Below, in pieces: positions 11,160-50,701 of a stretch of 64,000 nt of DNA. Both the position numbers and the translations under genes were made by a program. The stretch is from a virus (Duplodnaviria; Heunggongvirae; Uroviricota; Caudoviricetes), in IMG/VR virus record IMGVR_UViG_3300021403_000003, positions 49,952 to 113,951 of that record. The stretch is one strand, 5' to 3'. Under the pieces are notes generated by a model. The model had not been told where the DNA came from. It was given only the letters and a program-made list of their open reading frames with translations, and ran no database searches. Position 1 is the stretch's first letter. Every line of letters begins with the position of its first letter.

Positions 11160-11374
11160 GGAAATCAGACGTAGAATCTGTTCTTCAAAAGGGTCAAAGT
11201 CATCTGGATTCAGTACATCAGCAGGGCTAGGATCAGAATCAACTGTGGATGCCCACCAAAGTGCGCACTGAGTGGCAACCTAGAATCCGGGAGCTGATTG
11301 TAGATGAGGAAAATGATAGAGACAATTGCTGTCAGTGACTTTTCATCTAATCATTGATGGTACACGAAAGCGAG

Positions 11375-11415
11375 AGCCGAATGAAGCGTCCGTGCCCAGT
11401 TCGGCTTTTTCGTTT
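11375..11415 (+). terminator. Hairpin plus T-run (possible terminator or attenuator)
   Basis: AGCCGAA/TTCGGCT stem with 18-nt loop, then TTTTTCGTTTG. Confidence 0.3.
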
Positions 11416-11431
11416 GTCCCTAAATAATCCC

Positions 11432-11965
11432 ATGAAATACATTGACACACTTAAAAATCTACAACGAAAGAAACTCACGAAGGTTTTCTCACTCAAAGAA
11501 CAAGTGCAAGTGGATTGTCCAGGTGGGTTCTTTGTCAAGGCACTCCCAACCACTGAATCAGCTGTTCTTTTGGCTTCCTATTTTCGTGTTTTGGATCCTT
11601 TGCAAATTGATCTTCATGCAACTGTATTATACACAAAGCAAACTGCTGTAGATGTCATCCTACCAAAAATAGACAAACACTCAAGATATTCTGCAATTGG
11701 CAAAGAATTATTGTATTGGGAATCTAATGATGGGAATATTGTTCTTAAGCTTGATTCTCCTGATCTTGTGGCTCTTCACCAACAATTCAAAGATGCTGGC
11801 TTGGTTCCTAGTTTTCCGGAATATATTCCACATGTGACTCTCATACATCCTTGTGAGTACAATCACTACCAACATTTGATGAATGATCTCAGCTCTCGTT
11901 TGTCCTCTGCTCCTCTCTCACTTGAATTTTATTATGGTGGCTATACAATCATGGAAACAACATGA
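11432..11965 (+). CDS. 2H phosphoesterase (LigT / 2',3'-cyclic phosphodiesterase-like)
   Basis: Two H-x-T-x motifs (HATV and HVTL) at the spacing typical of the 2H superfamily; start taken at internal Met downstream of the hairpin. Confidence 0.5.
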   Translation: MKYIDTLKNLQRKKLTKVFSLKEQVQVDCPGGFFVKALPTTESAVLLASYFRVLDPLQIDLHATVLYTKQTAVDVILPKIDKHSRYSAIGKELLYWESNDGNIVLKLDSPDLVALHQQFKDAGLVPSFPEYIPHVTLIHPCEYNHYQHLMNDLSSRLSSAPLSLEFYYGGYTIMETT

Positions 11966-12352
11966 ATGAAAAATGTTATCCAACTTATCGTTGTCGGGGA
12001 ATGTTCCCTTGTGAGATGTTTTGTTTCTGATTCAACATGCACTGAATGCACACAAAGAATGAAGGATGAATCTGACAAAACCAAATCAAATTCTCCTGTG
12101 TCTTCCTCTGATTATTCTCCTTATGATTGGAGTATGTAGTGATTTCCTCCACCAGAGCACTAAATAGATCATGTTACGTAAAACTGTAATATTTAAATTG
12201 AATGTCTTACAAAGGATTCTTGAAGAGATCAATCTTCTTGAACCTGGATATTCGAAATCTCGTGAAATCCTGAATCAACAATTGATATGTAAAAACTGAG
12301 AATATTGATCAAATGATTTTCCTTACTGAATACTATCTGAGAAAATTGAAAG

Positions 12353-13242: not shown

Positions 13243-13490
13243 GTCTGGCATTTGGTCCTGCGTTGTTAGAGATTGATTCTGAAGGATAAATTCCTGTTGA
13301 CGATGCACAGAACATTGAGTGATACAGTTGCTTGTATCTCACTCAATTAATCAGATGATTGACAAGCTATTGATGTGATCTGAGAATATAGAGTGTCCCT
13401 TCGGGGAGTGCACCAAAAAGAGGATGATCACTGATACAAGTTTGTTTCAAACATCGCCAATCAAGCACGCTCAAGGTGTCCTTGATTTTG

Positions 13491-13512: not shown

Positions 13513-13515
13513 TCT

Positions 13516-13692
13516 ACCAAAGGGCAGATGGGACTAACATCCTTTCTGCGTACTTGGCATGAAGTTCATCCTTTAGCACCTGGAGAAGGACAACATCATT
13601 CAGCTTGTCTTGTGTGTTAGTTGGATTGTGTTCTTCAACACGACGAATATCAGCGAGGATCTGTTTGACTTTGCGTGACATGATTTTCTCCT
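13516..13692 (-). CDS. Small hypothetical protein (58 aa, below the ORF-track cut-off)
   Basis: Translated by eye: MSRKVKQILADIRRVEEHNPTNTQDKLNDVVLLQVLKDELHAKYAERMLVPSALW, with GGAG SD; lies downstream of 13691..13957 in the same leftward unit. Confidence 0.3.
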
Positions 13693-13957
13693 ACATCTCA
13701 AGTTGATTCTTGAACCATTCAAGGATTGCTTCGTTCTGAGTCCGATCGGCTTCCGAAACGATGTTCACCAGAGCATAAGCCAGTTGGTCATTGCCACCTT
13801 TTCTGGTGACCTGAAGATCATCATCTGTTGTTGAAGCGAGATCACACAAACCATCAACTGTCATGTCTGCGTTGGCTTTGTTCCACAAGTCAATGAGATC
13901 AGGCTCAGACAATTTGTGGATTTTCCAGCTCAGATGATTCGGGTTGATGTTCGTCAT
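13691..13957 (-). CDS. Hypothetical acidic protein, first gene of a leftward early unit
   Basis: AAGGAG SD; directly downstream of leftward promoter P1. Confidence 0.45.
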   Translation of the reverse strand: MTNINPNHLSWKIHKLSEPDLIDLWNKANADMTVDGLCDLASTTDDDLQVTRKGGNDQLAYALVNIVSEADRTQNEAILEWFKNQLEM

Positions 13958-13980: not shown

Positions 13981-14009
13981 AGTATACTGTAAGAATTCGA
14001 GAAGTAAAG
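13981..14009 (-). promoter_or_regulatory. Early promoter P1 (CTTTAC-N17-TATACT on minus strand)
   Basis: Member of the identical 28-bp core repeat CTTTACTTCTCGAATTCTTACAGTATAC; sits about 20 nt upstream of the minus-strand gene start. Confidence 0.6.
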
Positions 14010-14077
14010 TGGTTTCAATAAATATTATCATCCGCTTCCCTCAGCGTTCCACGGACCATCCTTCTTCAGGACCTCAG

Positions 14078-14099
14078 TGACAGATCTTACAGACCGGTT
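14078..14099. repeat. 22-bp repeat GACAGATCTTACAGACCGGTTC (copy 2 of 2)
   Basis: Both copies lie 3' of leftward early transcription units. Confidence 0.6.
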
Positions 14100-14256
14100 C
14101 AGAGTTCAGGACATTTGTGAGGAAGTCTAGTGTCGTACAACTCACCACAACCTGAACACTCATCAAGAGCCTCTCGGTCCTCTTTGAGCTTCTTAGTTTC
14201 CTTGGCCTTCTGAGCCAACCAGTCTTTGCGACGTTGATCTTGATTCTTCGCGGCAA

Positions 14257-14436
14257 TCATGATTTGTCAATCATCAGACGTAACAGAGCGATCTTCTTAT
14301 AAATCTCCTTCACCAGCTTCAATTCATCTTCAATGAGACAACCTGCAGGATTGCCAATCATGTTCCTGGCAGTCCGTTCGAGCTCACCAGTCCAATAGAT
14401 GGCTTCATTTTTCGAAGCCTTTGATCGCTTGGCCAT
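14257..14436 (-). CDS. Small hypothetical protein (start revised to MAKRSK..., with GGAGA SD)
   Basis: The track ORF 14257..14466 begins inside the promoter; the internal Met at 14436 has GGAGA 6 nt upstream and lies downstream of the predicted transcription start. Confidence 0.4.
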   Translation of the reverse strand: MAKRSKASKNEAIYWTGELERTARNMIGNPAGCLIEDELKLVKEIYKKIALLRLMIDKS

Positions 14437-14465
14437 GTTTGTCTCCGTTCGTTTAGTGTGAATCA

Positions 14466-14494
14466 ATTATAATGTAAGAATTCGAGAAGTAAAG
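14466..14494 (-). promoter_or_regulatory. Early promoter P2 (CTTTAC-N17-TATAAT on minus strand)
   Basis: Same core repeat as P1, with a consensus TATAAT -10 hexamer. Confidence 0.6.
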
Positions 14495-14572
14495 CGTTAA
14501 ATTTCACTCCGAGTCAATGATATCCGACACCATCACCTGGTGGGGAGTCCAGGTTTTGATGAATCATCAATT

Positions 14573-14592
14573 TTGATTCAAGCTTGAATCAA
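14573..14592. promoter_or_regulatory. Perfect 20-bp palindrome TTGATTCAAGCTTGAATCAA between promoters P2 and P3 (candidate operator)
   Basis: Exact self-complementarity; abuts the -35 of P3; an adjacent TGATGA-A-TCATCA inverted repeat lies at 14556..14568. Confidence 0.5.
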
Positions 14593-14599
14593 TAAAAGA

Positions 14600-14628
14600 C
14601 TTTACTTCTCGAATTCTTACAGTATACT
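14600..14628 (+). promoter_or_regulatory. Early promoter P3 (CTTTAC-N17-TATACT)
   Basis: Identical 28-bp core; predicted transcription start about 14635. Confidence 0.6.
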
Positions 14629-14655
14629 CGTTTCTACTGAATGAAGGAGACTCTA

Positions 14656-15456
14656 GTGGACAAAGCAACTCACCGTGGTAACTGTCAGGTTTGTGGACAC
14701 CAGCAACATGTGATGAATGTAGTTCTGGCCAAGCATGGCTACACGGTAGAGTTTGGATACTTTCGAGGCACTTGTTCTGGGAGTGGCAAGAAGCCAATCC
14801 AACAGGACAGAACAATCACTGATGCCACCATTGTTGCAATGCATGAGTATGCAGCTGGTTGCGACAAGGATGCCGAAGATCTTCGATCTGGTAAGACTCT
14901 CCCTACAAAAATCAAGACTGGTCAGAAACTTTTGGCTGGTAAGTATCAACCTGTCTACATTCCCTTCTCTGAAGGCTCTCCTGAGCAACAGACCAAGGCT
15001 GTGGAGTTGTTCATTGCAATGGCTGAAAGTGGTGCTCGCCATGCTCGGGCTCATGCAAGTGACCTGAAGAAACTGGCTGATAGACTCCATGGCACTGAAC
15101 TGGTGTTGATCGTTGAACCAGTCAAGACCGAAAAGCCTGTGACGACTGTTGATGTGAAGACTGCCAAGGTGACTGGCACATTTGCCACCAAGACAGCTCG
15201 CCAGGCTGAACTTGACAAGGTTGCACGTGAGTATCAAAGAATCGAGAAGGCTTTGCATCAACTGACTCTGGATGTTCCCAATGATCAACGGACCAAAGAA
15301 CAGACGGATGTCTACTATGCAATCCCGATGTACCTGCACCAGTGGAAGGCCAAGCACAGTGCGATGGTGTTGAAAGTGTTCCCTCAGGCCCAGGAGATAG
15401 TGACTGAGATTGAACAGCTGGTGAAAGTTCGCGAAGCGATCAGATCTGCACCTTGA
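14656..15456 (+). CDS. Hypothetical protein (start taken at GTG after AAGGAG SD; track ATG at 14641 is too close to the transcription start)
   Basis: 266-aa ORF with a CxxC motif near the N-terminus; the minus-strand ORF 14653..15357 is judged a shadow. Confidence 0.45.
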   Translation: MDKATHRGNCQVCGHQQHVMNVVLAKHGYTVEFGYFRGTCSGSGKKPIQQDRTITDATIVAMHEYAAGCDKDAEDLRSGKTLPTKIKTGQKLLAGKYQPVYIPFSEGSPEQQTKAVELFIAMAESGARHARAHASDLKKLADRLHGTELVLIVEPVKTEKPVTTVDVKTAKVTGTFATKTARQAELDKVAREYQRIEKALHQLTLDVPNDQRTKEQTDVYYAIPMYLHQWKAKHSAMVLKVFPQAQEIVTEIEQLVKVREAIRSAP

Positions 15457-15469
15457 AGGAGAGGATGAA

Positions 15470-15679
15470 ATGATTCTGTTTGAGAAGGATGATCAAGAGT
15501 TTCATGAACAAGAATGTGTGCAATTGGGAGAACGTTTGTTTGGGATTGGTCCCACTTATGCAACACTCCTAGATTTTCAGGCAGGAAAGGTTTTGATTTT
15601 ATTGTTTGATGAATTCAGAGAGCCTGGGACAAGTGGAGTGTTGGAAGTTTCACCTGAGGAAGTCTTCAAGCAATATTAA
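15470..15679 (+). CDS. Hypothetical acidic protein
   Basis: GGAG SD upstream; 69 aa. Confidence 0.3.
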   Translation: MILFEKDDQEFHEQECVQLGERLFGIGPTYATLLDFQAGKVLILLFDEFREPGTSGVLEVSPEEVFKQY

Positions 15680-15682
15680 AAG

Positions 15683-15711
15683 CTTTACTTCTCGAATTCT
15701 TACAGTATACT
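15683..15711 (+). promoter_or_regulatory. Early promoter P4 (CTTTAC-N17-TATACT)
   Basis: Identical 28-bp core. Confidence 0.6.
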
Positions 15712-15873: not shown

Positions 15874-16086
15874 ATGATCACCTCACCCAAGGTTTTGATA
15901 CTGACCCTGAGCCAGCAGTACACTACTGGCAAGCTTGATCAGGCATTAGCAACCTTGTTGCTGTACTGGAAAGCTCGTGTGGAAGGTGCAGATGAAGTTA
16001 TGATTGGCAAAGTCTCCAGTGATGAAGTGGCCAAGGGCTATGGTGAGAGAATCGCTGAGTCCATCAAAGCAAAATTGAGAGTGTAA
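15874..16086 (+). CDS. Hypothetical protein (start revised to MITSPK... with GGAAGG SD)
   Basis: Internal Met of track ORF 15817..16086, preceded by SD at 5-nt spacing. Confidence 0.35.
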   Translation: MITSPKVLILTLSQQYTTGKLDQALATLLLYWKARVEGADEVMIGKVSSDEVAKGYGERIAESIKAKLRV

Positions 16087-16303: not shown

Positions 16304-16460
16304 GGACTTTACTTCTCAGGAGCAATCAGCGATACTTCTTTGTAAGAATTAGGCAGGTTGATCAGTAGGTCGAAGATCAATCTCGAGAGTGAACAGGAGG
16401 GACCTCAATATGTGCCAACTGTTCAGCCATACTTCTCTGATGTGATTTGGACTAAAAGAC

Positions 16461-16772
16461 ATGATCAATGACAAATTTTATCAACACATGACTGCAGCTC
16501 AACGAGATGTGATTGATACATGTATTGCTGAGGTTGAGAGGAATCTCATTGATGCTGTGGCAAAGGCTCGTGCAGCTCACAATGCTCTCACCAAGTTACC
16601 AACACTTAATGAGGAAGGATTGCCTGTTCTGCATGGTTGCAATGTGAGAATGTCCAATCTCGTGGACCACTACATGACCATTGCTCGGGCTTGCTGGTCA
16701 AGACTGTCAATGATCAACCAACCCAAGGCAGATGAGATTTGGCTTGCCAACACTGATCTTTGGAAGTTCTGA
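16461..16772 (+). CDS. Hypothetical protein
   Basis: 103-aa ORF. Confidence 0.35.
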   Translation: MINDKFYQHMTAAQRDVIDTCIAEVERNLIDAVAKARAAHNALTKLPTLNEEGLPVLHGCNVRMSNLVDHYMTIARACWSRLSMINQPKADEIWLANTDLWKF

Positions 16773-17151: not shown

Positions 17152-17589
17152 ATGTCTTCTGTATCAAGTCTTCCCCATACACTTTGCAATGATCGTGTTT
17201 CCAAGCCCCTCAGCAACAAGGCTCGTGTAGAGCAGCTGGAAGGTGAACTGGTTCGCACTCGCCACACTCTTCATTCCACAGAAACTCGTCTGGCCTATGT
17301 ATCACGAGATCTGGAGTCACTGAAGTTGACCTTGGCTTCTGTTCGTGCAGAACGTCGAGAAGTTGACAATGCATACCGTGAGCGTCACAATGCAGATGCT
17401 CAGACAATTCGTGAGTTGCACACTAAGATCGACAGTCTGAACACTCAGCTTGTCAGTCTCAGCAGTGTCCTCAATGCTGCCAAGACTCTTGTTGCTGGTG
17501 CATTGCCACAATCTCAGACTCCTGTGGATGGATCATTTCCAAAGTCTCAGACCATGGGAGACCTCCTGACCACCTTCCTGCGTCGTTAA
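17152..17589 (+). CDS. Coiled-coil protein
   Basis: GGAGG SD; heptad-like R/E/L-rich sequence. Confidence 0.4.
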   Translation: MSSVSSLPHTLCNDRVSKPLSNKARVEQLEGELVRTRHTLHSTETRLAYVSRDLESLKLTLASVRAERREVDNAYRERHNADAQTIRELHTKIDSLNTQLVSLSSVLNAAKTLVAGALPQSQTPVDGSFPKSQTMGDLLTTFLRR

Positions 17590-18423: not shown

Positions 18424-18452
18424 CTTTACTTGCTTGACTTTATCAGTATGAT
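18424..18452 (+). promoter_or_regulatory. Early promoter P5 (CTTTAC-N17-TATGAT)
   Basis: Same architecture as P1-P4 with a different spacer; followed by GGAGACTAGC ATG of 18487. Confidence 0.5.
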
Positions 18453-18486
18453 TCGTTCTTAAGAAATCAACTGATCGGAGACTAGC

Positions 18487-20446: not shown

Positions 20447-20572
20447 GTTCTGGAAATCTATCAGGTCTCCAGAGTTCAAATGGAAACCTTTGATTTCAAC
20501 TGGATTGTTTTCTGGCAAAATCTATATCGAATGGGGTATGTGGTGTTGGGGATTTGGTAGAGGACACAGGAG

Positions 20573-21489: not shown

Positions 21490-22542
21490 GTGAAGCATAT
21501 CCCTCAACTTGATGGTTTCAGAGCACTAGCTTGCCTGTTGGTGTTAGGAGCCCACCTCTGGAGATATCCACCTGATCATATCATCACCATGCGAGTGTTT
21601 GGTGGTGGATGGGTTGGTGTAGACGTTTTCTTTGTTCTTTCGGGTTTCCTGATCACTAGGATCCTAATTGAGTCAAAAGACAACCAAAGTTACTTCTCGA
21701 ATTTCTACATCAGGAGAGCTCTTAGAATATTCCCGGTAAATTACATTTTGATGGGAATTGTTCTGTTCGCTTTGCCTTTGTTCTCTAAATTTCCTCAATT
21801 GATGCAAGTAAAGCATGATGAACTTTGGTATTTGTTCTATGCAGCAAACATCATCATAGGGATTGGAGGATGGCAACTCTCACTTCTAAACATAACATGG
21901 TCATTGGCAATTGAGGAACAATTTTATTTGATTTGGCCTGCAATGATGAGATGGTTTTCTATTGAGAGGATGAAAATCATCTGTATTTCTTTGATCATCA
22001 TGGTCCCTGTTTTCAGAGCCATTTTATATCCTTACATTGGCTGGACATGGTGTTATGTTGCAACTCCTTTAAGAACTGATTCATTTGCATGGGGTGCAAT
22101 GATAGCTTTAGGTGGACAAGTTTTCTTCCGTCAAACTGCCATGTGTATGTTGATGATCCCGGTTTGGATTATCGTTCCTAATTTGATCCTTGGTAATTTT
22201 ATGAGGGAAGAATACTGGGTGAGTTCTTTGGGATATAGTTTGACAGCTATGGCCGCAGCGGGAGGATTATGGTTGGTTCTCAATGCAAAGAAAACCATTT
22301 TCTCAAATGTTGTTTTGAGAGAAATCGGGAAAGTGAGCTATGGTACATATTTGTATCACCCTCTTGTATCAGTTGTCGTAAGTCGTTTCTTTGAGGGTAA
22401 ATCTCTTCTAGGATCATGGATTTTTATGGTGATATCAACTTGTCTATCACTTGGTGTTGCAGAACTTTCCTTTAGGTACTTTGAATCACCTATCATGTCA
22501 TTAAGGCAGAAAGTTGTCTCCGTTTGGGGATGGAATGGGTGA
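21490..22542 (+). CDS. Acyltransferase family 3 (membrane-bound O-acyltransferase)
   Basis: About 10 predicted TM helices; N-terminal LDGFRALACLLV and YFFVLSGFLI blocks typical of acyltransferase_3. Confidence 0.6.
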   Translation: MKHIPQLDGFRALACLLVLGAHLWRYPPDHIITMRVFGGGWVGVDVFFVLSGFLITRILIESKDNQSYFSNFYIRRALRIFPVNYILMGIVLFALPLFSKFPQLMQVKHDELWYLFYAANIIIGIGGWQLSLLNITWSLAIEEQFYLIWPAMMRWFSIERMKIICISLIIMVPVFRAILYPYIGWTWCYVATPLRTDSFAWGAMIALGGQVFFRQTAMCMLMIPVWIIVPNLILGNFMREEYWVSSLGYSLTAMAAAGGLWLVLNAKKTIFSNVVLREIGKVSYGTYLYHPLVSVVVSRFFEGKSLLGSWIFMVISTCLSLGVAELSFRYFESPIMSLRQKVVSVWGWNG

Positions 22543-24305: not shown

Positions 24306-24339
24306 GTGATAATCTATCTGCTGGGAATTCTTTAAGAAT

Positions 24340-24368
24340 ATCATACTAAAGGAGTCAATCAAGTAAAG
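24340..24368 (-). promoter_or_regulatory. Early promoter P6 (CTTTAC-N17-TATGAT on minus strand)
   Basis: Same promoter family; drives the leftward operon 24305..22592. Confidence 0.5.
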
Positions 24369-24923: not shown

Positions 24924-25021
24924 TAACAAGTTGGTTATTGAAAACCGTTTAAACCATTATTTGTCTTAATGAAAGATAGTCTTATAGAGAGAGAGTAAAA
25001 TTTACCTTAATACAGTATAAT

Positions 25022-25050
25022 TTGTACTTTGTAGTAGTAAATTTTATAAA
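25022..25050 (+). promoter_or_regulatory. Sigma70-like promoter candidate (TTGTAC-N17-TATAAA)
   Basis: AT-rich 290-bp intergenic region upstream of 25211. Confidence 0.3.
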
Positions 25051-25210
25051 ACGTCAAGCATTATAGCTTTAACTAAACTGACTCACTTATAAGTTCATGA
25101 TTTAAATGTAATTTTAACCCTTTACTTTTTAATCCACGTCAGGCCAGAGTATTCCTGACGGTGAGGCGAGGTGCTTCCCGCAAAGTAAAAAGTCCATATA
25201 GGAGGAAATT

Positions 25211-25570
25211 ATGAATGTACAGGCTCGCAAAGTTGCAACTCAGTCCAAGCGTGGGAACACCACACAGTCCTTCAAACTGTATCAACTCTTGTCCCGTAAG
25301 GGTGCGGCAAATTCTCAAGAACTTGCGAAGGTGATTGGTCGTCCACCGCATCAGACCTCAGTTTATATTGCTGAACTGACAAGGGTCTATGGAGCCAAGA
25401 TCATCTACGACACAGGCTCCAGAAAGTATGTGTTGCAGAACAAGGTGGAAGTTCCACCACAAGGTGTTGCTGGTTTGAGATGGAAATCTCAACAGTACAA
25501 GCCAGTTCAGCATGTTAACATGATCAAGCGTGGTCCGGGTCGTCCTCGGGCTGAAGCCAGAGCCAGTTAA
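25211..25570 (+). CDS. DNA-binding protein (winged-helix-like) with C-terminal AT-hook (GRPRGRP-type KRGPGRPRAE)
   Basis: GGAGG SD; basic; AT-hook motif at the C-terminus. Confidence 0.45.
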   Translation: MNVQARKVATQSKRGNTTQSFKLYQLLSRKGAANSQELAKVIGRPPHQTSVYIAELTRVYGAKIIYDTGSRKYVLQNKVEVPPQGVAGLRWKSQQYKPVQHVNMIKRGPGRPRAEARAS

Positions 25571-29818: not shown

Positions 29819-29882
29819 GCAACAAGTCTACCTTGAACTTTTGTAAGAATTATAATTCATTGAATATAATGAAAATTCTTTG

Positions 29883-29911
29883 CTTTACTCCAGAATCAAA
29901 ATCAGTATGAT
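29883..29911 (+). promoter_or_regulatory. Early promoter P7 (CTTTAC-N17-TATGAT)
   Basis: Same family; followed by AAGGAG SD and ATG at 29942. Confidence 0.5.
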
Positions 29912-29941
29912 TGATTTCATAGTAAATCAAGGAGACCGATA

Positions 29942-30091
29942 AATGAAACTGCAATATCACACCTACGAAGATGGTTGTGTTGCTGTTGTCCGTAGCAATC
30001 GTCGTGGTCCTTGTTCTCCAAGCCGTCGGATTGCTCGCGCTCGATGGCACAGGTCAGGCTTCATCGCCTATAAGGGAACTGGAAGGTAACC
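29942..30091 (+). CDS. Small basic Cys-containing protein (~49 aa), not in the ORF track; alternative to track ORF 29971..30204
   Basis: Strong SD AAGGAG at 8-nt spacing; reads MKLQYHTYEDGCVAVVRSNRRGPCSPSRRIARARWHRSGFIAYKGTGR. Confidence 0.3.
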
Positions 30092-30170
30092 TTTACTTCT
30101 GGTTCGGATCCAGCGATACTAAGCCTAACGATAAGAGGAGACTTAAAGGTGCAGATCAAACTCAATCAAG

Positions 30171-30244
30171 TTGCTTCGTGAAGATATCGAGGCTGCTTTG
30201 GTAGAAGTTGCTTCGTGAAGATATCGAGGCTGCTTTGGTAGAAG
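30171..30244 (+). repeat. Perfect 37-bp tandem duplication (x2) at a gene junction
   Basis: TTGCTTCGTGAAGATATCGAGGCTGCTTTGGTAGAAG twice; the unit length is not a multiple of 3. Confidence 0.9.
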
Positions 30245-30555
30245 TTGCTAAAAAGCATAAATTGTCCAAATTGAAATTGGGAAGAATCAATTTCAATCAA
30301 GATGCTTTTCAAGCTGAAATTGAAGGTGTGATTGAGGGTGGTGAATCCAGGGAAGTACAGCTCTACAAAGCTTATGCTGATTCTCTTGGATTACCTGTAT
30401 TTGGATCCATGGTGAAGGTTGGAAATAGAGAAATGGCAATTATTGGATTACGAGTCGGTGGTCCTCACAAGATCATTCTTCTTCGTGATTTGGTTACAGA
30501 CAAGCCTTATAGAATCAACGTCAAAAAATTCCTTGCTGGAATTCGGAGAAGCTAA
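30208..30555 (+). CDS. Hypothetical protein with no canonical start (TTG in track); start confused by the 37-bp duplication
   Basis: 115-aa ORF; the strong SD AAGAGGAG+GTG at 30149 is in another frame and stops after 10 codons. Confidence 0.35.
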   Translation: MLREDIEAALVEVAKKHKLSKLKLGRINFNQDAFQAEIEGVIEGGESREVQLYKAYADSLGLPVFGSMVKVGNREMAIIGLRVGGPHKIILLRDLVTDKPYRINVKKFLAGIRRS

Positions 30556-30758: not shown

Positions 30759-31027
30759 ACACGTATAAGGTTGGTCTTCTGGTTGGGCAACTCATGAAAG
30801 AATTGCTCACAGAAGACGAATTTCATAGAGGTTATCAGGAGGGTTTGAAAACAGAAAGTGAAGCGTTAAAAATGCTTCGTGATGCTTTGAAGATAAGTTT
30901 ATCAACAATGGCGAATAAGAAAGTTGAATCTATCAAAAAACTTCGAGAAGAAACTGGTTTGACCTTAAAAGAAGCCAAGGATCAAATTGAGGAATGGATG
31001 GATAAATTACCTACAGGATTGATTTAA
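30749..31027 (+). CDS. Hypothetical protein with a bL12 C-terminal-domain-like motif
   Basis: IKKLREETGLTLKEAKDQIE resembles the IKAVRxxTGLGLKEAKDLVE segment of bL12. Confidence 0.35.
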   Translation: MAINTYKVGLLVGQLMKELLTEDEFHRGYQEGLKTESEALKMLRDALKISLSTMANKKVESIKKLREETGLTLKEAKDQIEEWMDKLPTGLI

Positions 31028-31086
31028 TTCTTACAAAACTCAAAGTTATCATTGGAGGTATTCAGCAAAACGTTGAGGACTTCCCT

Positions 31087-31314: not shown

Positions 31315-31598
31315 TCATGACTACAAGAAAACATAAAGTGAAGATAGAGTCAAGGGCTCTAAGAGATGAACCAGAAGGAGAAATTCGAAATCCTCCCAGA
31401 AAGTTTTTGAAATTAAAATGGTATCTTTATACCATTTTCACTTTCTTGTTATGGGGTTTCATCGACCCTGCTCTGATTTCTGCAAAGGATGACCTTTCTG
31501 TCATTGGTGGGGTTGCTTTGGCTGTTGTTTGGGTAGAGATTTCATACTATTTTTGGGTAAAACCGTTGATCAATAAACTGAAGGAGAATGTATCTTGA
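31311..31598 (+). CDS. Membrane protein (2 TM)
   Basis: Hydrophobic helices; ATGA overlap. Confidence 0.4.
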   Translation: MIMTTRKHKVKIESRALRDEPEGEIRNPPRKFLKLKWYLYTIFTFLLWGFIDPALISAKDDLSVIGGVALAVVWVEISYYFWVKPLINKLKENVS

Positions 31599-32428
31599 AG
31601 TCAATCGTGCGAATTGTTACTATTGCTTTGATTTGTGCTGCAATGGTGGCTTGTATGAAGGTGCCTGTTGGCAGTGTTGGTATTATGGTGGATCTATATG
31701 GCAGTGACAAGGGAGTTCTCCCAAAAGAATTGGGACCAGGAAGGTACTATGTCGGTTACAACCAGGAACTGTTTACATTCCCAACGTATACACAAACATA
31801 TACTTGGACTAGGAGTTTGACTGAAGGTCGTGCACAGGATGAATCATTTACGTTCAATTCTGTGGAGGGTATTTCCGTCAATGCAGATGTTGGTATCACA
31901 CTGCACGTTGATCCAACAAAGACTGCTGAACTTTTCCAAAAGTATCGTCGTGGTATGGATGAGATTCTTGATACATTTGTTCATAACCTCGTTCGTGATG
32001 CATTGAATGAACGATCTTCAACCATGCCTATTGAGGACATCTATGGTAAGGGTAAGGCTCAGCTTATCGCTGATGCACAAAAAACTGTACAGGACCAATT
32101 GAATCCTGTTGGTATTGTGGTTGAAAAATTATACTTGGTATCAGCTCCACGTCTACCGGATGCAATCATCACTGCCATCAACAACAAGATGAAGGCAACT
32201 CAGATGGCTGAGCAGCGCAATAATGAAATTGCTCAGGCTGAGGCTGAGAAAACCATCAAGATCAAGGAAGCTGAGGGTGAGGCCCAGTCTATCAAAATCA
32301 AGGGTGATGCACTTCGTGATAATCCAGGCTTGGTTCAGTTGGAAGCTGTTCGAAAGTGGGATGGTCATTTGCCAAACGTGAGTGGTGGTGCTGTACCATT
32401 CATTCAGGTTACACCCACAGGAAAGTAA
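31595..32428 (+). CDS. SPFH/band-7 (prohibitin/HflC-like) membrane-anchored protein
   Basis: N-terminal TM/signal segment, SPFH core, and C-terminal AQAEAEKTIKIKEAEGEAQSIK coiled coil. Confidence 0.6.
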   Translation: MKSIVRIVTIALICAAMVACMKVPVGSVGIMVDLYGSDKGVLPKELGPGRYYVGYNQELFTFPTYTQTYTWTRSLTEGRAQDESFTFNSVEGISVNADVGITLHVDPTKTAELFQKYRRGMDEILDTFVHNLVRDALNERSSTMPIEDIYGKGKAQLIADAQKTVQDQLNPVGIVVEKLYLVSAPRLPDAIITAINNKMKATQMAEQRNNEIAQAEAEKTIKIKEAEGEAQSIKIKGDALRDNPGLVQLEAVRKWDGHLPNVSGGAVPFIQVTPTGK

Positions 32429-32549
32429 CAATCTTTGATTCTGTTGAGTATTTTGGGCTTTACCATCAAGGTAGAGCCCATTATACTTTTCTCATTGCCA
32501 TAATTTGAGATCAATATGAACGAAGTAGACTTCGAAACCCAAGCTGAAT

Positions 32550-32807: not shown

Positions 32808-33106
32808 TCATGCGACCTGATGCTCAAGTTGTTGCCGATGAATTGATCAAAATTGGGATCAAAATGGAGGTCCCAGCACCAGGCCTTTTTCAATTTGATA
32901 TTGCAGGGGTGAAATACATATTCAATCACGAAGGAACACTCAAATACACTATTGAATATAAATTGAATACTGATACTTTTCAAGAATTTTATTATGATGG
33001 TCACGATCGTCTTAAGACGAATTGGAATGGTCACGATCGTCTTAAGACGAATTGGAATGGTCAACTACCAGCACCAGAAATAGATGTGAAGAAATTTGGT
33101 CCTTGA
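32804..33106 (+). CDS. Hypothetical protein containing a duplicated decapeptide
   Basis: Contains GHDRLKTNWN twice. Confidence 0.4.
   Translation: MIMRPDAQVVADELIKIGIKMEVPAPGLFQFDIAGVKYIFNHEGTLKYTIEYKLNTDTFQEFYYDGHDRLKTNWNGHDRLKTNWNGQLPAPEIDVKKFGP
32998..33057 (+). repeat. Perfect 30-bp tandem duplication (x2), in frame
   Basis: TGGTCACGATCGTCTTAAGACGAATTGGAA twice. Confidence 0.9.
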
Positions 33107-34979: not shown

Positions 34980-36704
34980 ATGTCATTTCCAACCTCACCA
35001 GGCGTATATACAAGTGAAATTGACACAACAGGTGGCATTCCAGCTGTAAGTGTCTCAACAGGCGCAATTGTTGGTACATTTAACTGGGGTCCTGTGAATA
35101 TTATCACAGAAATCACTTCCGGTGTTGATCTTAACAACAAGTTTGGTGACCCTGATTCAAATGGTGCATCTTCATTCTTCACTGCTTGGAATTTCCTCCA
35201 ATATAGCAGTGATCTGAAGGTTGTTCGTTGCTTAGGTTCTGGTGCAAAGAATGCAACCGCAAATGGTGGTGGCACCATCATCATGAACGAAACCGATTAC
35301 TTCAACAACGTTTATCCAGGTACAGCTAACAACAGTTGGGCAGCACGCTACCCTGGTCACTTGGGTAGCAGTCTCGAAGTCATCACATTTTCAAATACTT
35401 CTTCTTGGAGCACAATTGCTGGAAATATTGCTGATCCATTGTACACATTTGCAAATCAGTTTGCATTCGCACCAAACACTTCACCATATGTTGCAAAAGT
35501 TACTAACAACTCTGTAACCGGTGATGAGGTTCATGTTCTTGTTGTTGATGCACTCGGTTTGATTACAGGTCAAGCAAATACTGTTTTGGAACGTTGGCCA
35601 TCTCTAAGTCGTTTGGTTGACTCTTTAAGTCCAACTGGTGTTAGCAATTATTACAAGGAATTCATCTATCAGAATTCCAAATTTGTGTTCAGCACAGGTA
35701 TTCCAGCAGCAAATGTTTCAGCTGGTTGGAATATCACAATTGCAGCAGCAAATGGCGTCAATATGGCCAATGGTGCTGAATCTCGTGCAAACGTTGCATT
35801 TTTGAGTGGTGGTTTGGATGGAACTGTGACAGCAGCAAATGTTGTTGCATCACAAGCTCTGTTCAGCGATCCAACAACTGCCGATATCAGCCTCTTTATG
35901 TGCGCCGATGGTGGCCAGACCGTTACCAATGGTGCAATTGCAATTGGTGAACAACGTAAAGATATTGTTGTATTTGGATCACCTCCACTTGCAAATACAC
36001 AAGACCCAAGCAGCCCAGCAACTGCAATTAACAACTATGTTAATGGTTTGAGTCGTTCAACCTACGCGTTCTTGGATACAGGTTGGAAATATCAATTTGA
36101 TCAATTCAACAATGTGTATCGTTGGGTTCCATTGAATGGTGACATTGCAGGTCTTGCTGCACGTACAGATAATACCAATGATCCATGGTGGTCATTTGCT
36201 GGCCTTCGTCGTGGTCAGATTTTGAACACGATCAAGTTGGCTTACAACCCAAGTCTCGCAGATCGTAATAGTCTCTATCAGAATGGTGTTAATCCTGTGG
36301 TCACATTCCCTGGTGAAGGTACCATGTTGTATGGTGACAAGACTTTCATTAATTACGCTTCTGTTTTCAGTCGCGTCAATGTCCGTAGGTTGTTTATTGT
36401 CCTCGAGAAGAGCATCAGTAAGGCTTCTCGCGCAGAGCTCTTTGAGTTCAACGATGCATTCACACAAGCTCAATTTGTGAACATCGTGACTCCATTCCTG
36501 CGTCAGGTTCAGGGTCGTCGTGGCATCCAGAAGTTCAAGGTTGTTTGCGATAGCACCAACAACACACCAGCTGTTGTCAATGCCAACCAATTCGTGGGTG
36601 ATATCTACATTATTCCACCCCAGTCAATCAACTACATTCAGTTGAACTTCATAGCTGTAGACAATGGTGTGAATTTCAACTACATCGTTGGTCAGGTTGC
36701 CTAA
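34980..36704 (+). CDS. Tail sheath protein (gp18-like)
   Basis: 574 aa immediately upstream of the tube/portal genes; T4-core synteny. Confidence 0.7.
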   Translation: MSFPTSPGVYTSEIDTTGGIPAVSVSTGAIVGTFNWGPVNIITEITSGVDLNNKFGDPDSNGASSFFTAWNFLQYSSDLKVVRCLGSGAKNATANGGGTIIMNETDYFNNVYPGTANNSWAARYPGHLGSSLEVITFSNTSSWSTIAGNIADPLYTFANQFAFAPNTSPYVAKVTNNSVTGDEVHVLVVDALGLITGQANTVLERWPSLSRLVDSLSPTGVSNYYKEFIYQNSKFVFSTGIPAANVSAGWNITIAAANGVNMANGAESRANVAFLSGGLDGTVTAANVVASQALFSDPTTADISLFMCADGGQTVTNGAIAIGEQRKDIVVFGSPPLANTQDPSSPATAINNYVNGLSRSTYAFLDTGWKYQFDQFNNVYRWVPLNGDIAGLAARTDNTNDPWWSFAGLRRGQILNTIKLAYNPSLADRNSLYQNGVNPVVTFPGEGTMLYGDKTFINYASVFSRVNVRRLFIVLEKSISKASRAELFEFNDAFTQAQFVNIVTPFLRQVQGRRGIQKFKVVCDSTNNTPAVVNANQFVGDIYIIPPQSINYIQLNFIAVDNGVNFNYIVGQVA

Positions 36705-44843: not shown

Positions 44844-46046
44844 ATGACAACCAAAAGAAGAACACTCGCTGAAGCAGCAATCGATGTTTTACAGTCTTCA
44901 GCAAAGCAAGGTCAAGAGCCAATGCACTCTGTTACACCAGCGGCTGGTGATACTTTGCAAAACAAGGTTGATCTTGGTGGAGCAACAACCAGGGAACCAC
45001 AAGGTAATGATGTTGGTAAGGTGACTGCTGCACACCGTCCACAAGCTACTGCTCCAAAGGGACCAGTTGTTGGTGCTGAAGGCATCCATCATGGTCCAGA
45101 AGGTGGTGCAAAGGGAACTGCTGAAGGTGGGGAAGAAGAGGTAGAACCACCAATGGCAACCTCTGGTGGATGTGCTCCAACAAAGGGATCAGAAGCAGCT
45201 GATACATTGTATTCTGAAGATATGGAACCAACTGCTGAAGAAATTGAAGCTGTACGTCAAGAACGTGTTAATGCTATTCGCGAAACCATGAGAACTTTGT
45301 CAGTTGATGAAGACATCAACGCAATGTTTGCTGGTAGTGAACTTTTGCAGTCAGAAAGTTTCCGTTCAAATGCAAAGACCATTTTTGAAACTGCTGTTAT
45401 TGCACGTGCAATTATGGTTGCAGAAAAGCTCGAAGAAGATATCATCCAAGCATCAGAAGAAGCAGTTGAAGAAATCCGTGAGGAAATCGAAGGCCGAGTT
45501 GATGCATACCTTGACCATATGGTTGAGCAGTGGATGGGTAAGAACGAAGTCGCAATTGAATCTGGTCTCCGTACAGAAATCAGCGAAGAATTCATTGATG
45601 GTCTCCGTAATTTGTTTTTGGAACATAATCTTGATATTCCAGAAGAAAAGGTTGATGTTGTTGAATCTCTGACTGCAAAGGTTGAACAGCTCCAATCTCA
45701 AATTAACGAGACCCTAAATACCAATGTTGAACTGACAAAGGCTATCAACGAAGGTAAGAAAACCAATTTGATCGCCTCAGTTTGTGAGGGACTCACCGCT
45801 ACTCAAACTGAGAAGTTCAAGACGCTCGCAGAGGGTGTTGAATTCACCACAGAAGGTGAATATAAGGGGAAGCTGGACGTTATCCGCGAACAGTATTTCT
45901 CAAAACAGGTGAACAACAGGGCTGTGACAAGCCAGGTTGCATTGGCAGAAGGTTCAAGTCCAACACCAGTTGAGACAAAAGAAATCTCCGGTCCAATGGC
46001 AAACCTTGTAGCAGCAATGAGCAGATTGCCAATCAATCAAAAATAA
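44844..46046 (+). CDS. Prohead scaffold protein (gp22-like)
   Basis: Acidic, Ala/Glu-rich helical protein between protease and capsid. Confidence 0.6.
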   Translation: MTTKRRTLAEAAIDVLQSSAKQGQEPMHSVTPAAGDTLQNKVDLGGATTREPQGNDVGKVTAAHRPQATAPKGPVVGAEGIHHGPEGGAKGTAEGGEEEVEPPMATSGGCAPTKGSEAADTLYSEDMEPTAEEIEAVRQERVNAIRETMRTLSVDEDINAMFAGSELLQSESFRSNAKTIFETAVIARAIMVAEKLEEDIIQASEEAVEEIREEIEGRVDAYLDHMVEQWMGKNEVAIESGLRTEISEEFIDGLRNLFLEHNLDIPEEKVDVVESLTAKVEQLQSQINETLNTNVELTKAINEGKKTNLIASVCEGLTATQTEKFKTLAEGVEFTTEGEYKGKLDVIREQYFSKQVNNRAVTSQVALAEGSSPTPVETKEISGPMANLVAAMSRLPINQK

Positions 46047-47565: not shown

Positions 47566-47595
47566 AGACCTCCGAAAGGAGGTCTTGTCGTTTTT
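47566..47595. terminator. Rho-independent terminator (AGACCTCC-GAAA-GGAGGTCT plus T-run); bidirectional with the 3' end of the minus-strand gene
   Basis: Perfect 8-bp stem, GAAA tetraloop, TGTCGTTTTT tail. Confidence 0.75.
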
Positions 47596-47600
47596 GGGAA

Positions 47601-47798
47601 TCAAATATAATGATACACCTCATTTTTGCATATTGGACAATGAATCATTACATAACTTTCGTTTCTTTCACTACCAATTGTACCTTCAGATTGTTTGAAT
47701 TCAAACAAACATTTACAATTATTACACCGTAACCTATGTACCTTTTCTTCTGGTAAGGAACCAGGTTCTATAATTTTCATGATAATCCTTATATTCAT
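47601..47798 (-). CDS. Zn-ribbon small protein
   Basis: CNNCKC ... CPICKNE. Confidence 0.35.
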   Translation of the reverse strand: MNIRIIMKIIEPGSLPEEKVHRLRCNNCKCLFEFKQSEGTIGSERNESYVMIHCPICKNEVYHYI

Positions 47799-47840
47799 CT
47801 GAATCCATAAATATACTTCATGTGTATGGAGAAGTAAACT

Positions 47841-49214: not shown

Positions 49215-50701
49215 GTGTCATCTACGTCGAGAAAATCAATGAATCACAATTAAAGATTCATACTGAGCAAGCGATCGAACAAGAACTTTGGGAATTCTAC
49301 AGTTTCAGAGACCCAAATTACAAGTTCACTCCACAGTACAGAAAATACAAGTGGAATGGTTATATTCGTCTCTTCCAGAAACGATCTAAAACTCTCCCAG
49401 CAGGATTGTTCAGACACCTCTGTATATTTGCTAAGGAACGGAATCATACCATCCAAGGATATCAATATCTGGCCCAAAACTTTTCCATAGAGGATGCTCG
49501 GAACTACACGAAAGGTTTAAACATCACAACCAAGGGTATATCCATTACACCCTATGATCATCAGGTCCTTGCTATAACAAAGGCTCTGAGGTATAAGAGA
49601 ACCATCTTAGAAAGTTCCACATCAAGTGGCAAATCATTGATTTGTTACACTATTTCTCGATATTTGATCGAAAAAGAAAAGAGAGGATTAATCATTGTAC
49701 CAACTATTGGATTGGTTGAACAGATGTACAGTGATTTTCAAGATTACAGTTCATTCAATGGTTGGAATACCAGCACCTATGTTCACAAAATATATGGTGG
49801 ACTTGACAAATTTAGTGTCAAACAGATTTATCTATCAACTTGGCAATCCATTTATGAGATGGAAGATCCTGATTGGTATAGACAATTTGAATGGGTTGTT
49901 GGAGATGAAGCACATAAATTTACAGGTAAATCATTGACTGGACTCATGACCCAAATGACCAATGCTGATTACAGAATTGGTATGACAGGAACAGTACAAG
50001 ATGGTGAAGTTCACCGTTTGGTGCTAGAAGGAAATTTCGGACCAATTGCAAAGATCGCTACCAATAAAGAGTTGATGGACAAGAAAATTGTTAGTGATCT
50101 GTTAGTTAAATGTTTAGTGCTCAGATATCCACAAACTGAATGTTATGCTGTCAGTAAAATGGATTATCACAAGGAATTGGATTTCCTCGTCACCCATAAA
50201 TACCGCAACAATTTCATCAAAAACCTTTCTTTATCATTGAAAGGTAACACGATGATTCTGTTTCAATTTGTAGAAAAACATGGTAAGGTTTTGTATGAAT
50301 TGATTAAACAAGCAGCTGGTAACAGAAGTGTGTATTTGATTTGTGGTGAAACAGAAGTTGAGCAAAGAGAATACATCAGAAAGATTGTCGAAACTGAAAA
50401 TGATGCAATCATCATTGCATCATTTGGTACATGTCAAGAAGGAATTTCTATTAAGAAAATTCACAGTATAATTTTTGCAAGTCCAAGTAAATCCAAAATC
50501 AGAGTCCTTCAATCAATTGGTCGTGGACTTCGTCTTGATGAATCTAAGGAATTTGCCACCTTGTACGACATCGCTGATGATTTAAGGATTGGTGACGAAA
50601 TTAATATCACATTGCTTCATTACGTGGAACGTCAAAAGCTCTATCACAGGGAGCAATTCAAAGTAAAAGTGTATAATGTAAATCTTGGGAGTAAATCATG
50701 A
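49211..50701 (+). CDS. uvsW: UvsW-like SF2 DNA helicase
   Basis: Walker A SSTSSGKS, motif II VVGDEAHKF, downstream TGT and QSIGRGLR helicase motifs. Confidence 0.75.
   Translation: MSVIYVEKINESQLKIHTEQAIEQELWEFYSFRDPNYKFTPQYRKYKWNGYIRLFQKRSKTLPAGLFRHLCIFAKERNHTIQGYQYLAQNFSIEDARNYTKGLNITTKGISITPYDHQVLAITKALRYKRTILESSTSSGKSLICYTISRYLIEKEKRGLIIVPTIGLVEQMYSDFQDYSSFNGWNTSTYVHKIYGGLDKFSVKQIYLSTWQSIYEMEDPDWYRQFEWVVGDEAHKFTGKSLTGLMTQMTNADYRIGMTGTVQDGEVHRLVLEGNFGPIAKIATNKELMDKKIVSDLLVKCLVLRYPQTECYAVSKMDYHKELDFLVTHKYRNNFIKNLSLSLKGNTMILFQFVEKHGKVLYELIKQAAGNRSVYLICGETEVEQREYIRKIVETENDAIIIASFGTCQEGISIKKIHSIIFASPSKSKIRVLQSIGRGLRLDESKEFATLYDIADDLRIGDEINITLLHYVERQKLYHREQFKVKVYNVNLGSKS

Follow-up and report, generated by a model that had tools for sequence, protein, structure and literature searches.

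A 28-bp promoter element occurs four times between positions 13981 and 15711 of the 64,000-nucleotide stretch of DNA analysed here (the window; IMG/VR record IMGVR_UViG_3300021403_000003, positions 49,952 to 113,951), which belongs to an uncultured soil T4-like myovirus. The repetition of the element is real, and the statistics behind it are solid. Comparison with a diverged relative shows the whole 28 bp to be a conserved unit that stands ahead of unrelated genes in the two phages, and the locus is a clade-specific variant of the promoter-cassette architecture known from the hyperplastic regions of T4-type phages. We consider it fairly probable that the copies are sigma-70-type early-promoter cassettes that behave like promoter-early stem-loop (PeSL) cassettes, with a portable, recombinogenic promoter and swapped cargo.

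Predicted promoter copies in the window

The 28-mer CTTTACTTCTCGAATTCTTACAGTATAC was found exactly at 13982-14009 (minus strand), 14600-14627 (plus strand) and 15683-15710 (plus strand), and a fourth copy at 14467-14494 (minus strand) carried two mismatches, which make its -10 TATAAT. No match was obtained in 100 shuffles of the sequence (0 expected). The pattern CTTTAC-N17-TATRMT yielded seven sites in the window versus 0.02 expected (13981, 14466, 14600, 15683, 18424, 24340 on the minus strand, and 29883), and TTTACT-N16-TATNNT yielded eight matches versus 0.16 expected. A looser family pattern, allowing 16-18-nt spacing and TTTAC[C/T], added three to four members, and the total number of promoter copies ahead of small accessory genes is about ten. 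The sites were as follows.

13981..14009, minus strand: P1, core cassette; exact 28-mer with -35 TTTACT, 16-nt spacer TCTCGAATTCTTACAG and -10 TATACT
14466..14494, minus strand: P2, core cassette with TATAAT as its -10; 28-mer with two mismatches
14600..14628, plus strand: P3, core cassette; exact 28-mer
15683..15711, plus strand: P4, core cassette; exact 28-mer, beginning 3 nt past the stop codon of a 69-amino-acid open reading frame (ORF)
18424..18452, plus strand: P5, same -35 and spacing, different spacer, -10 TATGAT
24340..24368, minus strand: P6, like P5 and identical to it at 22 of 29 positions
29883..29911, plus strand: P7, same -35 and spacing, -10 TATGAT
16307..16336, plus strand: weakened member, CTTTACTTCTC followed by N and GATACT (-10), then TCTTTGTAAGAATTAGG
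32459..32487, plus strand: putative TTTACC-N17-TATACT promoter just past the stop codon of ORF 31595-32428
47810..47838, minus strand: promoter-like site TTTACTTCTC...TATATT (TTTACT...TATATT) ahead of the leftward ORF 47601-47798
16341..16350 (minus strand), 29842-29851 (minus strand) and 31026-31035 (plus strand): isolated spacer core AATTCTTACA, intergenic in all three cases

All core copies were intergenic and oriented toward their genes. The spacer core AATTCTTACA occurred seven times in the window, where 0.40 occurrences were expected. One further pattern match (25014-25041, minus strand) had no gene downstream.

P1 was followed by AAGGAG and an ATG (23 nt), with an 88-amino-acid ORF (13691-13957) and a 55-amino-acid ORF (13514-13681) as predicted cargo. 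P2 was followed by GGAG and an ATG (29 nt); its predicted cargo comprised a 59-amino-acid ORF (14257-14436) and a 53-amino-acid zinc-ribbon-like ORF (14099-14260), which overlap at ATGA (stop/start). Behind P3, AAGGAG and a GTG (27 nt) preceded a 266-amino-acid ORF (14656-15456), with which the gene call agreed, and the 69-amino-acid ORF (15470-15679). P4 had the conserved leader and Shine-Dalgarno (SD) site, then a 9-codon ORF (15740), and longer ORFs lay further on (15767, 15817/15874).

An earlier note on this DNA had described four copies of the element, two per strand, with TATAAT as the -10 of P2, and an EcoRI site (GAATTC) within the spacer; both descriptions were confirmed, with three exact copies and one carrying two mismatches. 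The divergent interval of about 105 bp that it had reported was also recovered, as P2 ends at 14494 and P3 begins at 14600. The seven members it had counted are exactly those returned by the pattern, but the family is larger, with the sites at 16307, 32459 and 47810 added. It had further placed every copy of the element 15-60 nt upstream of a gene start. Starts were found 23-34 nt downstream of P1, P2, P3, P5, P6 and P7; for P4 the statement did not stand, as the start 28 nt downstream opens only the 9-codon ORF and the first gene-finder gene lies 162 nt downstream. The proposed resemblance to T4 early promoters, here read by sequence as sigma-70-type, agreed with the geometry TTTACT-N16-TATAMT, the A-rich upstream sequence, the intergenic positions, the SD site and start codon, the matching orientation and the non-random occurrence of the sites.

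Conservation of the cassette in a relative

The nearest relative, L002, had a large terminase (TerL) with 79% amino acid identity and matched the window in gene order from gp13 through orf221, the Acb1-like gene and orf198, after which a short leftward cluster faced a long rightward array. At fourfold-degenerate sites, the genes common to the window and L002 were 0.45-0.55 identical. The corresponding region of L002 held five TTTAC-N17-TATNNT sites, four of which had the spacer of the window (TTTACTTCCCGAATTCTTACATTATACT, TTTACTTTCCGAATTCTTACATTATACT, TTTACTTCCAGAACTCTTACATTATACT and TTTACTTTTTGAACTCTTACACTATACT), and the 28-bp consensus common to both phages was TTTACTTYYNGAAYTCTTACANTATACT. 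Pairwise identities of the cassette parts are listed below.

-35: within window 1.00, within L002 1.00, between phages 1.00
Spacer: within window 0.97, within L002 0.80, between phages 0.81
-10: within window 0.92, within L002 1.00, between phages 0.96
30 nt upstream: within window 0.34, within L002 0.39, between phages 0.33
30 nt downstream: within window 0.34, within L002 0.39, between phages 0.37

The similarity formed a sharp 28-bp block, and the background level began exactly at the edges of the -35 and the -10. Eleven of the 16 spacer positions (T..GAA.TCTTACA) were invariant in eight copies from the two phages; the L002 paralogues varied at five spacer positions only, and the L002 spacer read GAACTC in place of GAATTC. 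P1 looks orthologous to the L002 site at 16023-16050, judging from the upstream sequence TGAAACCAC common to both, and the weakened site at 16307-16336 resembled L002 promoter c (16648-16675 plus GTTTTGTAAGAATTAAGGAGG).

Because both genomes keep the same consensus, which concerted evolution within each genome cannot explain, we infer purifying selection on the spacer; the extra spacer identity within the window would then reflect recent homogenisation on top of selection. The earlier note had held that identity across the spacer goes beyond what sigma factor recognition needs, and the comparison bears this out, with the spacer kept in L002 at about 50% fourfold-degenerate identity and the flanks at background. 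It had offered recent promoter duplication or a factor binding the spacer as the cause. Recent duplication alone proved insufficient, and the L002 comparison favours functional constraint on the spacer.

The genes common to both phages were orf221, the Acb1-like gene, orf98, orf198 and the 53-amino-acid zinc-ribbon ORF (73% identical). The remaining genes beside the cassettes were non-homologous between the window and L002, and the order of modules was rearranged. Exact and degenerate scans for the 28-mer in IMG/VR, JGI metagenome contigs and GTDB genomes returned only the window phage and L002, and a BLAST search against isolated phages gave no match. The motif was absent from the more distant relatives L003, L005, L006, L007 and L008 (TerL 64-69%). 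A homologue search with orf221 yielded the window phage, L002 and a 1.7-kb fragment only.

Two side observations concern the relatives. In three L002 cassettes (16482-16560, 17405-17426 and 20540-20559), but not in the window copies, the real -35 was preceded by another TTTAC some 12-13 nt upstream, as in CTTTTAC-AAAGTAG-TTTAC. L007 (TerL 67%) had its own 47-nt promoter-like repeat, TTAATTCTTAAAGAAATTAATAGTATAAT, at 11289-11335 and 12275-12321, which contains the palindrome TTCTTAAAGAA, as found past the -10 of window P6.

Anatomy of the cassette

Each cassette consisted of a short A-rich upstream stretch, the -35 TTTACT, the 16-nt spacer and the -10 TATAMT, followed by a pyrimidine-rich discriminator, a conserved A at 8 nt, and a leader of about 20 nt with the SD site and the start codon. 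The fifth position past the -10 was a T in all eight core copies of the two phages, and the eighth was an A in seven of these eight; this A is the likely transcription start, which would place the starts of P1 and P2 at about 13973 and 14458/9 (minus strand) and those of P3 and P4 at about 14636 and 15719 (plus strand). The A-rich upstream stretches (AATAAAAGA, ATATTAAAAG and GAAATAAAAAG) were seen in some copies only. The -10 was preceded by ACAG or ACAT, with no TGn, and AAGGAG or GGAG with a start codon was found 23-34 nt past the -10.

Similarity between some copies extended past the core. P1 and P4 had 37 nt in common at 97% identity as an inverted repeat, P1 and P3 had 51 nt in common at 84%, reaching the SD site, and P3 and P4 had 40 nt in common at 90%. 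The direct pairs were 485 bp (P1/P2) and 1083 bp (P3/P4) apart. A hairpin was present only upstream of P3, upstream of P7, where an inverted AATTCTTACA was also found, and at 32459-32487, where GGGCTTTACC/GGTAGAGCCC, read directly from the sequence, covers the -35 and the spacer. The site at 32459-32487 reads as a composite terminator/promoter of PeSL type.

Other identities of the element were considered and rejected. A second overlapping promoter with CTTACA as its -35 had no conserved -10 downstream. A miniature inverted-repeat transposable element or transposon was dismissed in view of the lack of terminal repeats and target duplications. A MotA-box middle promoter was likewise rejected: P7 does have TTTGCTTTA, but this sequence takes the place of the -35, 18 nt away from the -10, and is not centred at -30. 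A near-copy of the spacer, TTACTTCTCGAATTTCTACA, was noted at 21690-21709 inside an acyltransferase-3 gene (21490-22542), with 18 of 20 positions matching, 14 nt of them exact, and a roughly estimated chance expectation of about 0.01. It was rejected as a promoter, having no -35 and no -10 and encoding the family motif YFSNFY.

The palindrome and other inverted repeats

The interval between the outward-facing P2 and P3 contained three symmetric features.

14573..14592: perfect 20-bp palindrome TTGATTCAAGCTTGAATCAA, unique in the window, ending 7 bp before the CTTTAC of P3
14556..14570: 15-bp inverted repeat TTGATGA-A-TCATCAA, adjoining the palindrome; 0.5 expected, not above chance on its own
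14535-14554: hairpin ACCTGG...CCAGGT, the third hairpin of the interval

The first two are the perfect palindrome and the adjacent TGATGA-A-TCATCA repeat that the earlier note had pointed out. TTGATTCAAGCTTGAATCAA was the longest perfect palindrome of the window, and block shuffles gave 0.095 palindromes of at least 20 bp per window. Relative to the inferred P3 start it covers about -63 to -44, and its centre falls near -53; counted from P2, the centre is at about -124. As a hairpin it folds into an AT-rich 8-bp stem, and an intrinsic terminator was rejected in the absence of a U-tract on either strand.

In L002, the divergent interval was 166 bp long and held the core TTCAAGCT twice together with a different 12-bp palindrome, TTCAATATTGAA. 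No long symmetric site was found in this interval: the core TTCAAGCT was kept and the 20-bp symmetry was not. The related L002 site lay 6 bp closer to the promoter than the window palindrome. Half of this upstream sequence was also carried by P4 and by two L002 promoters. The palindrome is a real upstream feature of P3; it may be part of the upstream arm of the cassette or the head-to-head junction of two arms, and it could serve as an upstream binding site or a hairpin insulator, or be the scar of two cassettes joined head to head.

The earlier suggestion that the palindromes are operators for a dimeric early regulator, possibly one of three small adjacent proteins, did not hold up well. The 20-bp site lies outside both core promoters, its symmetry is not kept in L002, and the three proteins had no detectable DNA-binding family or recognisable domain. 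Better positions for a repressor were found elsewhere, at inverted repeats overlapping the start region: TTCTTAAGAA (18456-18465) directly past the -10 of P5, TTCTTAAAGAA (24328-24338) directly past the -10 of P6, and TTGATTT-N6-AAATCAA (29911-29930), which spans the -10 to the SD site of P7.

Cargo turnover and proposed recombination

The P3 cargo orf266 (14656-15456) belonged to PHROG 17208/8776, for which no function is assigned. Its homologues (50-61% identity) were found in unrelated phages behind TTGCAT- and TTGACG-type promoters, from which it follows that the cargo moves without the cassette and that the cassette belongs to the lineage. These homologues came from Ralstonia, Xanthomonas, Stenotrophomonas and Pseudomonas phages and from unrelated metagenomic phages, a hint that the host range of this gene pool may be proteobacterial and soil-based. 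Fragments of the cassette were seen at other intergenic spots, namely the spacer core AATTCTTACA and the CTTTACTTCTC fragment at 16307. The direct pairs P1/P2 and P3/P4 and the inverted pair P1/P4 would allow gene modules to be deleted, inserted or inverted, and such recombination joints would account for the change of genes behind the cassettes from one relative to another.

Proposed function and alternative explanations

In the reading that we prefer, PeSL-like early-promoter cassettes, unmodified host RNA polymerase holoenzyme would fire the cassettes immediately after infection, and these would express short operons of small accessory ORFans, leftward from P1 and P2 and rightward from P3 and P4. 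The most likely reasons for the constraint on the spacer would be that it adds to promoter strength or to RNA polymerase contact, comparable to the extended T4 early consensus, or that it binds a factor. Homogenisation through recombination between copies would also contribute to the near-100% identity seen among the four in the window.

Several points count against this reading. Folding of the 28-mer gave 0 kcal/mol with no spacer hairpin, by which a stem-loop within the spacer, as in RB49-type PeSLs, was rejected, and no significant hairpin was found upstream of P1, P4, P5 or P6, although the stem-loop defines a PeSL. L002 was the one informative relative, and paralogous copies are not independent samples. 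The site counts cover the 64-kb window, within a genome that measures at least 267 kb. Promoters and start sites alike were read from sequence alone, as was the shuffling, which we infer from differing gene content, and the label sigma-70-type assumes that the host housekeeping sigma factor reads TTTACT/TATACT.

A dedicated phage or host regulator bound to the conserved spacer GAAYTCTTACA, with the nearby inverted repeats (the 20-bp palindrome, TTGATTT-N6-AAATCAA at P7 and TTCTTA(A)AGAA at P5 and P6) as further dimeric operators, is a possibility, though not a likely one. The contiguous or near-contiguous run of 11 invariant spacer positions between random flanks would suit such a binding site, as would the core AATTCTTACA at three further intergenic sites; the inverted repeats of P5, P6 and P7, from the -10 to about +20, occupy the classic repressor position, and the shut-off of T4 early promoters is an acknowledged open question (PMC2988021). 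TTCTTA was enriched within 70 nt of the family promoters (9 versus 1.2 expected) and TTGATT-N8-AATCAA was perfect only at P3 and P7, but both enrichments are post hoc, and the second is weak (P about 0.006) and its motif absent from L002; TTCAA-N2-TTGAA had no overall enrichment. A regulator also agrees poorly with the asymmetry of the spacer motif, whose GAATTC symmetry is broken in L002 (GAACTC), with adjacent proteins that lack a recognisable DNA-binding domain, and with a palindrome that sits outside both core promoters and is shifted by 6 bp from its L002 counterpart. We think it unlikely that the GAAYTCTTACA block, with the related TTCTTA motifs of the other family promoters, is the site of a new phage factor that boosts or shuts off early transcription by direct action on the promoter DNA, which would make the cassette a mobile promoter-operator module; a mechanism of this kind is one that T4-type phages are suspected to require.

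Recent duplication and gene conversion of a promoter segment, with a neutral spacer and the palindromes as by-products, is less likely again. The four window copies are 97-100% identical, the pairs P1/P4, P3/P4 and P1/P3 share more than 28 bp, and T4-type phages are highly recombinogenic, as is well established and described in the PeSL papers. However, L002 keeps the same spacer consensus although neutral sites are only about 50% identical, and its paralogues differ at just the five spacer positions. The similarity falls exactly at the promoter edges, with no gradual decay over a duplicated segment, and concerted evolution would have let the two consensus sequences diverge, which they have not. 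It is very improbable that the element, taken as 28-36 bp, is read by another polymerase specificity, either a phage sigma factor or RNA polymerase or a host extracytoplasmic function (ECF)-like sigma factor with GAAY as its -35. Contiguous conservation from the -35 to the start site does recall the promoters of single-subunit RNA polymerases, and GAAY with a semi-conserved TCT/TTC 16-17 nt later loosely resembles ECF promoters, but the fit to sigma-70 geometry is perfect, nothing beyond the -35, the spacing and the -10 is common to P5-P7 and other members, and an ECF promoter leaves the invariant TCTTACA unexplained. Moreover, T4-like phages use host RNA polymerase for their early genes (PMC2988021), and no phage RNA polymerase was seen among the window proteins.

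Genomic setting

A 267-kb JGI contig and a Logan assembly both carry the identical sequence. The genes gp13, gp14, gp15, gp16 and gp17 (large terminase) lay at 5-10 kb, upstream of the cassettes; gp18 (tail sheath) at 34980 and the scaffold gene and gp23 at 44.8-47.5 kb lay downstream, and UvsW and a gp46-like protein were encoded further downstream in the window. The promoters lay between gp17 and gp18 in 25 kb of small ORFs, a region of small ORFans that is hyperplastic as the term is applied to T4-type phages. The gp23 protein was about 56% identical to that of the nearest isolated phages, which are cyanomyoviruses, and BLAST found no DNA-level match to the window among isolated phages. The nearest relatives came from farmland and forest soil assemblies.

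Further features of the region were recorded. The gene at 11381-11965 (plus strand), just downstream of the terminase, matched Acb1, an anti-CBASS nuclease, in Pfam; it was kept at 55% identity in L002 (12806-13942), where the gene is nearly double in length (378 amino acids). A terminator-like hairpin was seen at about 13456-13490, ahead of the leftward cluster. The leftward ORF 47601-47798 (59-65 amino acids, CxxC...CxxC) sits between gp23 and the next structural gene, and a GC-rich, bidirectional terminator-like hairpin (47567-47590) is common to it and gp23. Two perfect tandem duplications were found, at 30168-30241 (two copies of 37 nt) and 32997-33056 (two copies of 30 nt); the 37-nt unit is not a multiple of three and sits at the junction of ORFs 29971-30204 and 30208-30555, where it may represent a gene split or an assembly artefact. 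A 287-nt intergenic region before ORF 25211-25570 (recorded at 25120-25210) contained a GC-rich hairpin, CGTCAGG...CCTGACG. This region may be a structured leader; it had no Rfam match, and the Rfam scan of the window found no known RNA.

The T4 late-promoter motif TATAAATA was absent from the window (2.0 expected). CTAAATAA or ATAAATAA was found 30-60 nt upstream of several structural genes (10437, gp18 at 34980, the scaffold gene at 44844, and 58661) and is probably the late promoter of the clade of this phage.

Significance and comparison with known systems

Repeated early promoters are thought to act as joints for accessory-gene swapping in T4-type phages, and the present data extend this to an unsampled soil lineage, as a clean case in which the same cassette stands ahead of unrelated cargo in two relatives. 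What stands out is that the spacer is kept without a stem-loop across phages whose neutral sites are near saturation, which singles out about 11 bp of promoter DNA. If the spacer binds a factor, it would bear on how T4-like phages turn off their early promoters; if it is an RNA polymerase contact, nature would here offer an instance of promoter strength encoded in the spacer. The unit of 28-36 bp is in itself a compact portable promoter, and probably a very strong one.

The P2-P3 interval resembles divergent operators of the repressor/Cro type, with outward promoters about 105 bp apart and perfect and near-perfect inverted repeats between them. Unlike in those systems, the repeats of this interval overlap neither core promoter, no repressor-like gene is adjacent, and the symmetry is not kept in L002.

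T4 early promoters (Pe) have been described as 'uber' UP/-35/TGn/-10 promoters (Hinton 2010, PMC2988021), which show 'additional regions of consensus' outside the -35, TGn and -10 (PMC2988021). The window cassettes share with them a (G/C)TTTAC-type -35, a spacing of 17 nt when counted as CTTTAC-N17-TATNNT, A-rich upstream sequence in some copies, consensus past the canonical hexamers, and small non-essential early genes as predicted cargo. They differ in lacking the TGn extended -10, with ACAG or ACAT in its place before the -10, in a -10 that is mostly TATACT rather than TATAAT, and in a conserved spacer block that is clade-specific.

PeSLs have been described in RB49/phi1, T4/PST and KVP40/nt-1 (Arbiol et al. 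2010, PMC2839356; Comeau et al. 2014, PMC4122927). A PeSL combines an AT-rich stretch with a stem-loop, a sigma-70-like early promoter, an SD site and a start codon; PeSLs lie in hyperplastic regions beside differential ORFans, leave degraded half-copies near indels, and recombine into mini-circles (PMC2839356, PMC4122927). The T4/PST promoter consensus is TTTACW-N17-TAYWAT (PMC4122927, PMC2839356), and the window -35 is of this type (TTTACW). Like PeSLs, the window cassettes are repeated, conserved sigma-70-like early promoters by sequence, with A/T-rich upstream stretches and an SD site and start codon at the 3' end. Both kinds lie in hyperplastic regions beside ORFans that differ among relatives, with degraded partial copies nearby, and a few window members (P3, P7 and 32459-32487) have a stem-loop, whereas the core copies P1 and P4, as well as P5 and P6, do not. 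Recombination products have been documented for PeSLs, whereas the window cassettes are known from their sequence. RB49 PeSLs owe their conserved spacer to a G/C stem between the boxes; the window spacer forms no hairpin, and, unlike in PeSLs, its sequence is kept between phages at 79% TerL identity.

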